From assembly GCF_024502345.1 (NCBI RefSeq), contig NZ_JALDNN010000002.1: a stretch of DNA of 64,000 nt; one strand, given 5' to 3'. A model generated the notes under the pieces. That model was not told where the DNA came from, did no database searches, and saw only the letters and a program-made list of their open reading frames with translations. The first letter of the stretch is position 1, and each line of letters opens with the position of its first letter. This stretch comes from Escherichia coli. Its GTDB lineage: Bacteria > Pseudomonadota > Gammaproteobacteria > Enterobacterales > Enterobacteriaceae. A program made the position numbers and the translations under genes. Of this stretch, positions 1 through 4,150 are shown piece after piece.

Positions 1-502
1 AAACCGTGTGCTTGAGCGTCTGAATGCTGGCAAAACCGTCAGAAGCTTCTTGATTGCCGCCGTCGAGTTACTGACCGAGGCGGTCAATATTCTGGTGCTT
101 CAGGTGTTCCGCAAAGACGATTATGCGGTGAAATACGCCGTCGAACCGCTGCTGGACGGTAGCGGCCCGCTGGGCGATCTTTCGGTCCGGCTCAAGCTTA
201 TCTATGGGCTGGGCGTGATTAGCCGTCATGAGTATGAAGATGCGGAGCTGCAGATGGCGCTGCGTGAAGAGCTGAACCATGACGGCAGCGAATATGCCTT
301 CACGGATGATGAAATTCTTGGGCCGCTGGGTGAGCTGCACTGCGTCTCTGCCCTGCCGCCCGCGCCGCTCTTTGACGATAGCGATGCCGACCTGCTGGCA
401 ATGCAAAAACAGCGCTATCAACAGGTCGTTCGCTCAACGATGGTACTTTCTCTGACCGAGCTGATTTCCCGAATCAGCTTGAAAAAAGCCTTTCAGAAAT
501 AA
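1..502 (+). CDS. mtlR: mannitol operon repressor MtlR, 5'-partial (start lies upstream of window)
   Basis: ORF 8..502 (164 aa) matches the C-terminal two-thirds of enterobacterial MtlR as recalled; frame stays open to the window edge. Confidence 0.85.
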   Translation, partial: NRVLERLNAGKTVRSFLIAAVELLTEAVNILVLQVFRKDDYAVKYAVEPLLDGSGPLGDLSVRLKLIYGLGVISRHEYEDAELQMALREELNHDGSEYAFTDDEILGPLGELHCVSALPPAPLFDDSDADLLAMQKQRYQQVVRSTMVLSLTELISRISLKKAFQK

Positions 503-507
503 CACCG

Positions 508-723
508 TCAAACTTCTTTCGCCTGGTTCTCGACCGGCTGATAAAGTTTGCGGTAGTGTTCTAATCGCTCCAGAAACATCGCCGCTTTCTCTTCCGGGAT
601 CTCTTCCGGTACGTGACTCAGGCGAGGTGATTTCTTCAGATACTCCATAAATGCCTGACTGGACGCCATAAAATCGACGGCTTTGTCGATGACTAGTGGT
701 ACGTTTTCGCCAAGTTTGCCCAT
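508..723 (-). CDS. small conserved protein, YibT-like
   Basis: 71-aa ORF convergent with mtlR; size and position match the small gene downstream of mtlR in Enterobacteriaceae (from memory). Confidence 0.45.
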
Positions 724-874
724 AACGTCGTCCTCCTCATGATTCCTCTCTTCAGAATGGACAATTAAGGGCGATCCGTTTGAGGAAAATGTGCGGATTC
801 TCGTGACGGCATGCTAAAAAAGAGATCTGCATAACCATTTCTCTTAAATTACAATAAATTCATGGGATTACTAA

Positions 875-986
875 GGAAGGTGCGAACAAGTCCCTGATAT
901 GAGATCATGTTTGTCATCTGGAGCCATGGAACAGGGTTCATCATGAGTCATCAACTTACCTTCGCCGACAGTGAATTCAGCAGTAA
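875..986 (+). mobile_element. IS5-family left-end fragment (IR plus first ~110 bp), interrupted
   Basis: Matches the start of the full copy at 1191 (ggaaggtgcgaacaag... through the first codons of the transposase), preceded by ctaa; breaks off at 987. Confidence 0.8.
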
Positions 987-1024
987 GGGGTCTGACGCTC
1001 AGTGGAACGAAAACTCACGTTAAG
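987..1024. repeat. Tn3-family 38-bp terminal inverted repeat (GGGGTCTGACGCTCAGTGGAACGAAAACTCACGTTAAG)
   Basis: Match to the recalled Tn3/Tn2 terminal IR, directly abutting the IS5 fragment. Confidence 0.8.
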
Positions 1025-1190
1025 CGATTGTGGCTGAGAAAAACCAAAGGATCCGGCGAGGATCCTTTGGTGTGCTGACATGACCAGTTTCTTTTGGGAT
1101 ATTTTTTCCCTGCATGAAGTCCTTTATGTCCTGATCATAATGCCATTAAAAATTCTATGCTATGGCTTCGCTATTTTAGACATTCCCTAA

Positions 1191-2386
1191 GGAAGGTGCG
1201 AACAAGTCCCTGATATGAGATCATGTTTGTCATCTGGAGCCATGGAACAGGGTTCATTATGAGTCATCAACTTACCTTCGCCGACAGTGAATTCAGCAGT
1301 AAGCGCCGTCAGACCAGAAAAGAGATTTTCTTGTCCCGCATGGAGCAGATTCTGCCATGGCAAAACATGGTGGAAGTCATCGAGCCGTTTTAACCCAAGG
1401 CGGGCAATGGCCGACGGCCCTATCCGCTGGAAACCATGCTACGCATTCACTGCATGCAGCATTGGTACAACCTGAGCGATGGCGCGATGGAAGATGCTCT
1501 GTACGAAATCGCCTCCATGCGCCTGTTTGCCCGGTTATCCCTGGATAGCGCCTTGCCGGACCGCACCACCATCATGAATTTCCGCCACCTGCTGGAGCAG
1601 CATCAACTGGCCCGCCAATTGTTCAAGACCATCAATCGCTGGCTGGCCGAAGCAGGCGTCATGATGACTCGAGGCACCTTGGTCGATGCCACCATCATTG
1701 AGGCACCCAGCTCGACCAAGAACAAAGAGCAGCAACGCGATCCGGAGATGCATCAGACCAAGAAAGGCAATCAGTGGCACTTTGGCATGAAGGCCCACAT
1801 TGGTGTCGATGCCAAGAGTGGCCTGACCCACAGCCTGGTCACCACCGCGGCCAACGAGCATGACCTCAATCAGCCGGGTAATCTGCTTCATGGAGAGGAG
1901 CAATTTGTCTCAGCCGATGCCGGCTACCAAGGAGCGCCACAGCGCGAGGAGCTGGCCGAGGTGGATGTGGACTGGCTGATCGCCGAGCGTCCCGGCAGGG
2001 TAAAAACCTTGAAGCAGCATCCGCGCAAGAACAAAACGGCCATCAACATCGAATACATGAAAGCCAGCATCCGTGCCAGGGTGGAGCACCCGTTTCGCAT
2101 CATCAAGCGGCAGTTCGGCTTCGTGAAAGCCAGATACAAGGGGCTGCTGAAAAACGATAACCAACTGGCGATGTTATTCACCCTGGCCAACCTGTTTCGG
2201 GTGGACCAAATGATACGTCAGTGGGAGAGATCTCAGTAAAAACCGGAAATAACGCCAGAAATGGTGGAAAAAATAGCCTAAATAGGCTGATTCGATGTGT
2301 TTGCGGGAAAAAAATCGGCCCAGATCCGCGAAATTTTAATCAGCGAGTCAGCTTGGGAAGAAATGACCTGCTTATTCGCACCTTCC
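1191..2386 (+). mobile_element. IS5-family element, ISKpn26-like (1196 bp), copy A
   Basis: Terminal IRs ggaaggtgcgaa.../...ttcgcaccttcc; flanks ctaa/ttaa; transposase close to IS5 InsH but with a different 3' end region than the canonical IS5 at 28453. Confidence 0.9.
1259..2239 (+). pseudogene. IS5-family transposase with premature stop at codon 45 (TAA at 1391-1393 where intact copies have TAT)
   Basis: In-frame read from ATG 1259 hits TAA; ORF track restarts at internal Met 1436 (267 aa); intact copies B and D read ...EPFYPK... Confidence 0.85.
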
Positions 2387-2517
2387 TTAATATAAAGACA
2401 CAAGCAGAGACATTTTTGGCACGATATAAAAACGCTAAGTTAAAAAATCACTATGACGTGTTGGGTATCAAATGTTCACTGGCATAAACCTCTGTTTCTG
2501 ATGTAAAACAGATTTTC

Positions 2518-2543
2518 TGAGGAGGCGTAAAACCTCCTCGTAC
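2518..2543 (-). terminator. possible hairpin terminator downstream of ftnB-like gene
   Basis: Inverted repeat gaggagg...cctcctc just 3' of the minus-strand stop; weak U-tract. Confidence 0.3.
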
Positions 2544-2555
2544 TGCGAAATTGAT

Positions 2556-3056
2556 TTAGTGATAGCGATCGATCACGCCAACCAGATAGTGGTCGGTTTG
2601 CTGCATGTTGATGCCCGCTTTTTTAGCGCTGCGGACTTCATCCAGAATGATTTGCAACAGCGTCCCGTCCACGATTTCCTCTTTTCTGTATCGCTTCAGG
2701 AAGTTAATCGCTGACTTATCGTTTGCTGCCTGGGCGTCTTCCGTCAAAGAGGTCAGCGCATTAATGCGCTTCTGGTAATCGCTTACCGTCTGCTCAAACA
2801 GATCTTCCAGCGTGGAAAATTCACCGCACCGGGCGTGTTGCTCCTGTAACACCGGCGTGGCGCCGCTCTGTTTGATGTATTCGTACATGCGCATCATTTG
2901 CGTCACCGTATTTTGCGCCTGATGACGCAAAAATAGTGCGGTGCCATTAAGGCTATTCTCGCTGCACCTCTGGCTGAGCTGAAGATACAAATTTGAGGTA
3001 TAAAACTCCTGATTCATTTGCGCATTCAGTTTTTGAACTATTCCGCTAGCGATCAT
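2556..3056 (-). CDS. ftnB: ferritin-like protein (FtnB-like)
   Basis: 166 aa; ferritin motifs (...KLNAQMNQEFYTSNLYLQLS..., ...ILDEVRSAKKAG...) resembling E. coli FtnB/YecI from memory. Confidence 0.75.
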   Translation of the reverse strand: MIASGIVQKLNAQMNQEFYTSNLYLQLSQRCSENSLNGTALFLRHQAQNTVTQMMRMYEYIKQSGATPVLQEQHARCGEFSTLEDLFEQTVSDYQKRINALTSLTEDAQAANDKSAINFLKRYRKEEIVDGTLLQIILDEVRSAKKAGINMQQTDHYLVGVIDRYH

Positions 3057-3330
3057 AGGACTTCCTTATTTCTTGTCATCTCAGAAAACGGTCACTCTTC
3101 GAAAAAACAACCAGAATAAAAGCGATTCTTTCGCTTTTTTTATTGCGCCTGGTTACACAGTCATATTCATTTTAAGTCGGGATGCTCCTTATTTAAATAT
3201 CCAACCCTACTATCGCATTTCTATCTGGCATTATTCTGTGATGGTGTTTCGATATTCACACTCCCTGTGCCAATCCTTTCTTATCGACAGTAGGAAACTT
3301 CCTCCGGCTATTCTGCTGAACACGATTAGG

Positions 3331-4150
3331 GGCACTGTTGCAAAGTTAGCGATGAGGCAGCGTTTTGTCTTATTCAAAGGCCTTACATTTCAAAAACTCT
3401 GCTTACCAGGCGCATTTCGCCCAGGGGATCACCATAATAAAATGCTGAGGCCTGGCCTTTGCGTAGTGCACGCATCACCTCAATACCTTTGATGGTGGCG
3501 TAAGCCGTCTTCATGGATTTAAATCCCAGCGTGGCGCCGATTATCCGTTTCAGTTTGCCATGATCGCATTCAATCACGTTGTTCCGGTACTTAATCTGTC
3601 GGTGTTCAACGTCAGACGGGCACCGGCCTTCGCGTTTGAGCAGAGCAAGCGCGCGACCATAGGCGGGCGCTTTATCCGTGTTGATGAATCGCGGGATCTG
3701 CCACTTCTTCACGTTGTTGAGGATTTTACCCAGAAACCGGTATGCAGCTTTGCTGTTACGACGGGAGGAGAGATAAAAATCGACAGTGCGGCCCCGGCTG
3801 TCGACGGCCCGGTACAGATACGCCCAGCGGCCATTGACCTTCACGTAGGTTTCATCCATGTGCCACGGGCAAAGATCGGAAGGGTTACGCCAGTACCAGC
3901 GCAGCCGTTTTTCCATTTCAGGCGCATAACGCTGAACCCAGCGGTAAATCGTGGAGTGATCGACATTCACTCCGCGTTCAGCCAGCATCTCCTGCAGCTC
4001 ACGGTAACTGATGCCGTATTTGCAGTACCAGCGTACGGCCCACAGAATGATGTCACGCTGAAAATGCCGGCCTTTGAATGGGTTCATGTGCAGCTCCATC
4101 AGCAAAAGGGGATGATAAGTTTATCACCACCGACTATTTGCAACAGTGCC
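3331..4150 (-). mobile_element. IS26 copy 1 (820 bp)
   Basis: 14-bp IRs GGCACTGTTGCAAA at both ends; flanking 8-mers differ (cgattagg vs ggcagacg), so no target-site duplication. Confidence 0.97.
3383..4087 (-). CDS. tnpA: IS26 transposase Tnp26 (234 aa)
   Basis: [25 protein letters not shown]... canonical Tnp26 sequence. Confidence 0.97.
   Translation of the reverse strand: MNPFKGRHFQRDIILWAVRWYCKYGISYRELQEMLAERGVNVDHSTIYRWVQRYAPEMEKRLRWYWRNPSDLCPWHMDETYVKVNGRWAYLYRAVDSRGRTVDFYLSSRRNSKAAYRFLGKILNNVKKWQIPRFINTDKAPAYGRALALLKREGRCPSDVEHRQIKYRNNVIECDHGKLKRIIGATLGFKSMKTAYATIKGIEVMRALRKGQASAFYYGDPLGEMRLVSRVFEM

Follow-up and report, generated by a model that had tools for sequence, protein, structure and literature searches.

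Chromosomal-type gene fragments joined to an IncR-type plasmid backbone through mobile-element scars in Escherichia coli

Overall structure of the junction region

The subject of this study is the beginning of a 64,000-nucleotide stretch of Escherichia coli DNA (RefSeq assembly GCF_024502345.1, contig NZ_JALDNN010000002.1), which is referred to as the window hereafter. Its first 4,150 bases carry the 3′ part of the mannitol operon repressor gene mtlR, a yibT-like gene, and a ferritin-like gene, together with several mobile elements and their remnants. This region very probably constitutes an accessory-region junction of a multi-replicon plasmid that is saturated with insertion sequences (ISs) and has an IncR-type backbone, and it would be composed of three modules already circulating among enterobacterial plasmids. 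An initial annotation, made from the sequence alone, had offered two alternatives, namely, a plasmid segment integrated into a chromosome and a plasmid that had captured chromosomal DNA. The latter is strongly favoured over the former by the present analysis, and we regard the plasmid reading as highly probable.

The three modules are as follows. Module A (1–986) consists of the 3′ part of mtlR, the yibT-like gene, and the 112-bp left end of an IS5. Module B (987–4150) contains a lone Tn3-type terminal inverted repeat (IR) of 38 bp, the 166-bp end of a Tn3-family transposon, an IS5-family element, the ferritin-like gene, and an IS26. Module C (4151 onward) is an IncR-type backbone (resD, parAB, repB, umuCD, and retA) cut by IS26. 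Six junctions, referred to as J1 to J6, separate the constituents: native DNA passes into IS5 at J1 (874/875), IS5 into the IR at J2 (986/987), the transposon end into the IS5-like element at J3 (1190/1191), the IS5-like element into the ferritin segment at J4 (2386/2387), the ferritin segment into IS26 at J5 (3330/3331), and IS26 into the backbone at J6 (4150/4151). Five of them (J1 to J5) recur in other public sequences, J2 being common to four other assemblies, and J6 alone has had no second occurrence so far. Judging from this sharing, the capture would be neither recent nor local, the recurring junctions apparently having been inherited ready-made.

The features listed in the initial annotation were all present at or near the positions where it had placed them, as judged from the sequence, the list of open reading frames (ORFs), and the NCBIfam profiles. 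The order and the identities of mtlR, the yibT-like ORF, the ftnB-like ferritin gene, and the first IS26 copy were likewise upheld. The notion of one chromosomal-type segment holds only in part: chromosomal-type genes are indeed joined to the backbone via mobile-element scars, but they belong to two unrelated modules, not to one piece. In none of the native chromosomes seen were mtlR/yibT and the ferritin gene contiguous.

Native origin of the mtlR–yibT piece

The mtlR part (entry 1–502, reading frame 2–502, plus strand) comprises 165 codons of the 3′ part of the gene and matches the MltR family profile of NCBIfam with 247.7 bits (cutoff 149). Its 5′ end is cut by the edge of the window, the first 31 codons lying outside. 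The operon context is lost, since neither mtlA nor mtlD is in the window, and the relatives described below retain only a 112-aa mtlD remnant. The yibT-like ORF (508–723, minus strand; 71 aa) matched no NCBIfam family; the exact protein is present in native loci, where it sits between mtlR and yibL (DUF2810) in the order mtlADR-yibT-yibL-lldPRD on megabase-scale contigs. Native intergenic DNA follows (724–874) and ends in the CTAA target of IS5 at 871–874 (J1).

A comparison with the mtl locus of related strains, which the initial annotation had proposed as a check, places the end of native homology at base 874. The window sequence from 1 to 874 is 99.1–99.5% identical to seven native mtl loci, the homology ends exactly at that base, and the native loci read ...ATTACTAA|TAATACGCTGG across the IS5 site. 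Since the native sequence runs uninterrupted over the site, IS5 was inserted at CTAA. In a scan of 100,044 GTDB species-representative genomes, the uninterrupted 33-mer gave a single hit, that in Pseudocitrobacter faecalis DSM 27453, whose mtl locus is among the native loci in the above identity range (99.1–99.5%). No other DNA of the native Pseudocitrobacter locus was found elsewhere in the window. The IS5 left-end fragment (875–986, plus strand; 112 bp), which is broken by the Tn3-type 38-bp IR (987–1024) as initially described, shows 0–1 mismatches to IS5 and IS5-like copies, and an intact IS5 occupies the identical site in the Klebsiella quasipneumoniae plasmid p2_21223. No published attribution of the mtlR fragment to Pseudocitrobacter came to light; this is a minor point of annotation, and a literature search combining mtlR with IS26, IS5, and plasmid returned no papers.

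Occurrence of the mtlR–yibT piece on plasmids

The mtlR–yibT fragment with the same IS5 left end was found in at least 18 PLSDB plasmids of Klebsiella, E. coli, and Enterobacter at 99.8–99.9% identity, and J1 is accordingly present in at least 18 plasmids. These copies begin at the position equivalent to base 27 (at an IS5 right end) or base 45 (at IS26) of the window. At 15 variable sites, the window agrees with the three compared plasmid-lineage copies except at nucleotide 252, apart from one change private to the compared sequence L001. The change at nucleotide 252 replaces L with Q in MtlR. We rebuilt the full-length L-to-Q MtlR and used it as an exact lookup in the protein index, where it was recorded in 46 index blocks, none of them on a contig longer than 200 kb.

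The contexts of the L-to-Q MtlR include type IV secretion system (T4SS) and relaxase genes (L043), T4SS genes (L044), and a microcin-B17-like operon (L048). L044 is 99.93% identical to the window over 1–1392, L048 is 99.88% identical over 1–1731, up to its contig end, and L045 and L046 match the window over 1–1098. Six contexts were retrieved; in four of them (L043–L046), mtlD is truncated by a complete IS26 that is inverted relative to copy 1 of the window and lies approximately 411 bp before position 1, and in L048, a 244-bp IS26 remnant lies at that same mtlD junction. The IS26 copies of L043 and L044 are 100% identical to copy 1 of the window. The left IS26 predicted for an IS26-bounded (pseudo-)compound transposon is seen in relatives only, in inverted orientation and at this distance of about 411 bp from position 1. 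The metagenome scaffold L047 shows the order mtlD′-mtlR(Q)-yibT-IS5like-ferritin-IS26, without the transposon remnant.

The plasmid-borne ΔmtlD/mtlR/yibT/IS5 fragment of these relatives (L043–L048; PLSDB plasmids such as pSKLX33612_KPC2, p2_21223, and pEC316_2) resembles the window in three respects: the Pseudocitrobacter-like fragment itself, the IS5 site, and a near-identical pattern of single-nucleotide polymorphisms (SNPs). L044 and L048 additionally share J2 and J3 with the window. The differences concern the boundaries. On the left, the plasmid-borne fragments begin at an IS5 right end at 27, at IS26 at 45, or at IS26 around −411; on the right, many relatives carry Tn5403 at base 206 of IS5, replacing or accompanying the Tn3-type IR at base 112. 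As a separate observation, the Tn5403-type element lies at base 206 of the IS5 beside yibT in L043, L044, and L001, while the copy in the window lies elsewhere in context: it is a Tn5403-type transposon at 49496–52419 (with an IR at 49496 and an 896-aa Tn3-family transposase) that is truncated by IS26 copy 3.

The Tn3-type inverted repeat and the transposon end

The lone 38-bp terminal IR (987–1024, plus strand), whose outer end at 987 forms J2, begins with GGGG and occurs in exact form only once in the window (0 expected); we take it to be identical to the IR of Tn3 itself. No second IR was found in the 64 kb when 3 mismatches or a degenerate core were allowed, and no 5-bp duplication was found either. 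The adjoining 166 bp (1025–1190, plus strand) are the interior end of a Tn3-family transposon, contain the last bases of a minus-strand DEAD/DEAH helicase cargo gene, and end in CTAA at J3. The IR and these 166 bp form a 204-bp stretch that is 100% identical in 50 plasmids, and in the Citrobacter freundii plasmid pRHBSTW-00370_3 (L014), they end a Tn3-family unit composed of the IR, the DEAD/DEAH helicase gene, a methyltransferase gene, tnpR, and tnpA. Because the DNA outside the IR varies among the contexts, the IR marks a genuine boundary of an element. The window does not contain the remainder of the helicase gene, not even beside the orphan IS5 right end located at 33024, where it was looked for, and the sole match to L014 elsewhere is IS1. 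The Tn3-family segment at 987–1190 is a remnant, not a complete transposon.

The two junctions of this segment differ in their distribution. J2 is common to L044, L045, L046, and L048, and it was found neither in PLSDB nor in the E. coli complete genomes, nor by an exact scan of the JGI metagenomes; J3 is common to 12 plasmids. Some of the relatives also carry a Tn3-family transposon with SIR2-like and DUF87 (HerA-like) genes (L045, 11150–18640; L028, 2233–9509), which looks like a defence-system cargo transposon; in L045 and L046, it lies within the same transposon remnant.

The full-length IS5-family element

The element at 1191–2386 (plus strand; 1196 bp) had been described as a complete ISKpn26-like copy. 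It is of full length, with both ends present (IS5-family elements have GGAAGGTGCGAA... terminal repeats), but its transposase gene carries a nonsense codon at 1391–1393. The change is TAC to TAA (altered base 1393) at transposase codon 45, and it leaves two ORFs, at 1259–1393 (44 aa) and 1436–2239 (267 aa), where the IS5-family norm is one DDE transposase of about 326 aa. The element matched the IS5 family transposase profile of NCBIfam with 317 bits, is 94.8% identical to IS5 of E. coli K-12, and is 100% identical to the copy in the Enterobacter cloacae plasmid NZ_CP104841.1; PGAP labels near-identical copies sometimes as IS5 and sometimes as ISKpn26. The left flank of the element is CTAA and the right flank TTAA, without a 4-bp YTAR target duplication; an IS5-like copy at 28453–29646 has CTAA on both sides.

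A hybrid structure of the element, with a crossover between a left and a right part, was also considered. The mismatches against L016 cluster at 1191–1998, but the pattern is patchy and is shared with other nonsense-bearing copies, and it was dropped as evidence. An exact-protein lookup with the 267-aa truncated transposase gave unrelated contexts only and no source replicon. As a side observation, a second nonsense copy lies at 47190–48385 (minus strand), with the identical TAC-to-TAA change at codon 45 and the same 44-aa and 267-aa ORFs, and the 267-aa product is recorded in at least five unrelated genomic contexts (including L027–L031). A seemingly defective IS5-like lineage thus appears to be present at several different sites.

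The ferritin module and IS26 copy 1

The ferritin segment (2387–3330, minus strand), bounded by J4 and J5, contains an intact gene for a non-heme ferritin-like protein of the FtnB type (2556–3056, minus strand; NF011597, 209.9 bits, cutoff 154). The segment is 99.9% identical in 301 plasmids, with 260 of these 301 covering most of it, and the unit that it forms with the IS5-like element and IS26 occurs in at least 260 plasmids. In the ten longest contexts of the ferritin gene, several of which are chromosomes, an IS5-like flank was found in all ten and an IS26 flank in nine; a native chromosomal context for the gene was seen in none of them.

Being intact and very widespread, the ferritin-like gene may be useful to its hosts. 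One may go further and suppose that the ferritin gene, with or without mtlR, forms a selected functional cassette conferring an iron, oxidative-stress, or regulatory benefit. An identical ferritin protein recorded in 9,349 index blocks, the intact ORF, and the full-length mtlR of the L-to-Q lineage would be in keeping with such a role, and a function in stress tolerance has been speculated for the module (PMC6657655). However, the module is retained in other plasmid lineages in which mtlR is truncated at positions 27 and 45, neither an mtl operator nor the operon accompanies mtlR, and linkage to IS26 explains the wide distribution equally well. We therefore consider a selected cassette unlikely, and mtlR and yibT are probably neutral passengers on the plasmid.

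IS26 copy 1 (3331–4150, minus strand; 820 bp; IS6 family) has 14-bp terminal IRs, GGCACTGTTGCAAA, at 3331–3344 and 4137–4150, and its tnp26 gene (3383–4087) encodes a 234-aa DDE transposase (NF033587, IS6 family, 275.6 bits). The IR has six matches in the window, belonging to three copies, against 0 expected, and the three IS26 copies show 0–3 mismatches to each other. The lack of a target duplication reported initially was borne out, for the flanks of copy 1, CGATTAGG and GGCAGACG, show no 8-bp duplication, nor do they pair, in direct or inverted orientation, with the flanks of the two remaining copies. The missing duplication therefore points to deletion or recombination, not to an element outside IS26.

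A module similar to this part of the window is already known. In pSIM-1-BJ01, higA, higB, and the ferritin gene have been described between IS26 and ISKpn26 (PMC6657655), and the same module occurs in pKPC, IncF, and IncHI plasmids of Citrobacter, Klebsiella, and Enterobacter. The window from 1191 to 4150 is the same unit at 97.8–99.5% identity, and both inner junctions are identical. There are two differences. One is that the known module has a pair of helix-turn-helix and RelE-type toxin–antitoxin genes on its left, where the window has the remnant of the Tn3-family transposon. Another is that the IS5-like transposase gene of the window carries the nonsense codon, unlike that of the usual module. 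A still closer match is provided by NZ_CP104841.1, in which one block (7001–10165 of L038) is 99.94% identical to 987–4151 of the window (2 mismatches in 3165 bp). From the IR through the transposon end, the nonsense IS, and the ferritin gene to IS26, all constituents are in this block. Outside the IR, NZ_CP104841.1 has the end of another Tn3-family transposon, in contrast to the IS5 of the window, and beyond IS26 it has dha genes, in contrast to the IncR backbone.

The IncR-type backbone

The region beyond J6 begins with the 3′ remnant of a hypothetical gene of the IncR backbone (4151–4864, plus strand), truncated by IS26. From 4151 onward, the window aligns to L041 from base 7574, within the coding sequence at 7075–8091, the upstream part of which is not in the window. 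It is followed by a resD-like tyrosine recombinase gene (4865–5659, plus strand), a parB-like gene (6083–6385, minus strand), parA (6382–7011, minus strand), repB (7585–8478, minus strand), umuC (8872–10143, minus strand), umuD (within 4865–12467), and retA, a gene for a group II intron reverse transcriptase (10980–12467, plus strand). The succession of recombinase, partition, and rep genes noted initially is consequently correct, with the following bases for identification: the recombinase, ParA, and UmuC matched NCBIfam profiles; the parB-like gene and umuD are annotated in plasmid relatives; RepB, which had no NCBIfam hit, was identified via annotated plasmid hits only; and the reverse transcriptase was identified from annotated plasmid hits and the Pfam RVT_1 domain of the relatives. 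Tandem repeats lie by parA/parB and repB, at 6034–6082 (8 bp × 6), 7492–7585 (41 bp × 2.3), and 8513–8617 (21 bp × 5), and these short flanking repeats are plausibly the partition-site and iteron repeats of the IncR replicon.

The backbone is 94.6–97% identical, with about 95% in the alignment starting at 4151, to those of K. pneumoniae plasmids, in which the order is vapBC, ccdAB, a hypothetical gene, resD, parB, parA, repB, umuCD, and retA. The IncR backbone has been defined by vagCD, resD, repB, parAB, umuCD, and retA (pHN84KPC/pK245 type; PMC7707992). Compared with this type, the window has the same order of resD, parB, parA, repB, umuC, umuD, retA, and IS1, but beside IS26 it has lost vagCD (vapBC), ccdAB, and the 5′ portion of the adjoining hypothetical gene, and sopAB and other replicon parts are added. 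A search of the 64-kb window for these missing parts found none of them. An IS26 at the position of J6 was found neither in PLSDB (72,556 plasmids) nor in 10 IncR contexts, and an exact-protein lookup with the resD-like recombinase gave standard IncR backbones and no source replicon. On gene content and similarity, the backbone appears to be of the IncR type.

Proposed history of the junction

These observations can be arranged in the following course of events. IS5 entered CTAA downstream of yibT in a Pseudocitrobacter-like chromosome, as the comparison with the native loci shows. Module A is a relic of such a chromosome, consisting of the 3′ part of mtlD (outside the window), mtlR, and yibT, with IS5 marking its right boundary. 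The mtlD′-mtlR-yibT piece may subsequently have moved onto plasmids and been trimmed by IS26 or IS5, depending on the lineage. Next, the end of a Tn3-family transposon would have been inserted into IS5 at base 112 in a transposase-mediated manner; since module B starts exactly at the terminal base of the IR, J2 looks transposase-made. Recombination via IS5-like copies may then have joined the transposon remnant to the ferritin/IS26 module. Given its unequal flanks (CTAA and TTAA), the IS5-like element would be a point of recombination rather than the result of a simple insertion.

In the last step, an IS26 adjacent deletion, or recombination or cointegration through IS26, would have joined module B to module C, with the loss of vapBC, ccdAB, and some 500 bp from the hypothetical gene. 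A joining mediated by IS26 is suggested because the target duplication is lacking, the common ferritin|IS26 junction is kept, and a backbone gene is truncated. Nothing in the arrangement departs from the well-known reshuffling of plasmids by IS26, IS5, and Tn3-family elements.

Plasmid, chromosome, or assembly artefact

The plasmid reading is favoured for three reasons. One is that the L-to-Q MtlR has a plasmid-only record. Another is that mtlD is truncated by IS26 in the relatives. The last is the base rate of IncR backbones, 257 of the 261 surveyed being located on plasmids (PMC7707992). Several points weigh against this reading or the history built on it. The window begins inside mtlR, so that the DNA to its left is unseen and a chromosome is formally possible. 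J6 is unmatched and sits at a repeat of 820 bp of which the window has three copies, so that an assembly artefact is possible there. The SNPs within the IS5-like copy are patchy, and no crossover point was identified. The insertion of the transposon end and the recombination via IS5-like copies may have occurred in either order, because L047 lacks the transposon remnant, while L038 has the order transposon remnant-IS5like-ferritin-IS26 without mtlR. Finally, the IncR call was based on gene content and similarity, and the MOB-suite labels on the relatives read rep_cluster_1418.

Other explanations should be weighed against a plasmid with captured chromosomal DNA. The lone IR at 987 could mark a one-ended transposition that fused the whole replicon to a carrier of mtlR-yibT-IS5; in parallel, the nonsense IS5-like element could represent a non-autonomous lineage using transposase in trans. 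We consider this rather improbable.

Integration of a large plasmid into a chromosome, for instance, that of a Pseudocitrobacter-like host, via the IS5 by yibT or via one-ended Tn3-family transposition at the lone IR, is very improbable, although it has some features on its side. Bases 1–26 of the mtlR part resemble the native sequence and are lacking in all 18 plasmid copies from PLSDB, one-ended transposition would be expected to leave a single IR bordered by plasmid DNA on the inside, ferritin and mtlR fragments are found inside chromosomes too, and IncR backbones are occasionally chromosomal (4 of 261; PMC7707992). It is countered, however, by the L-to-Q MtlR being known only from contigs shorter than 200 kb, by the IS26 or its remnant truncating mtlD 411 bp upstream in five relatives, and by the recurrence of J2 in four plasmid-size contigs. 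Moreover, the window holds no further native Pseudocitrobacter DNA, and its other 60 kb holds two partition systems and at least one rep gene.

Also very improbable is an assembly chimera across the repeated IS26, in which 1–3330 and 4151 onward would not be adjacent. The initial annotation had named misassembly as the case that would refute it, the three IS26 copies are near-identical (0–3 mismatches), and J6 is unique among the 72,556 plasmids and the 10 IncR contexts, but all the other junctions are replicated independently in other assemblies, and both the truncation of IncR backbones by IS26 and the loss of vagCD (absent in 14% of IncR plasmids) are common, real events (PMC7707992).

We thus retain the reading of a plasmid with captured chromosomal DNA. 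The region is of small biological importance; it illustrates in detail how IS5-type, Tn3-type, and IS26 elements carry short chromosomal relics about on enterobacterial plasmids. Such relics are no evidence of a chromosomal location. The shared junctions, in combination with the L-to-Q marker of MtlR, could be used to trace the lineage of the plasmid module.

Other features of the window

The other 60 kb are a dense, IS-rich plasmid mosaic with IS1, IS3-family, IS30, and IS4-family elements, three IS26 copies, and several IS5-like copies. The window also includes two group II intron reverse transcriptase genes, a Tn5403-type transposase gene, an hsdR fragment, sopAB, and a second umuC. An inverted pair of IS30-family copies (18447–19668 and 23377–24598), 100% identical to each other, encloses about 3.7 kb, which contain an IS3-family fragment and two ORFs without an NCBIfam match (20609–21070 and 21054–23084). 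Two IS1 copies (42287–43055 and 43058–43826; 99.87% identical) form a tandem dimer, head to tail and 2 bp apart.

Two longer repeat arrays were found. One, at 55637–56096, consists of 10.7 units of 43 bp just downstream of sopB/sopA (56185–58331, minus strand) and is presumably the F-type sopC centromere. Another, at 13682–14180, is a GC-rich tandem array of 13.5 units of 37 bp (93% matches) that lies between IS1 elements and overlaps unannotated ORFs; variable tandem repeats have been mentioned in IncR backbones (PMC7707992). Finally, the window carries further cargo of the chromosomal type. This comprises a gene for an OmpC-family porin at 29840–30952 and a complete scr sucrose operon at 35356–41919; the latter, which encodes fructokinase, a porin, the IIBC component of a phosphotransferase system, sucrose-6-phosphate hydrolase, and a repressor, is 99.5% identical to E. 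coli plasmids.

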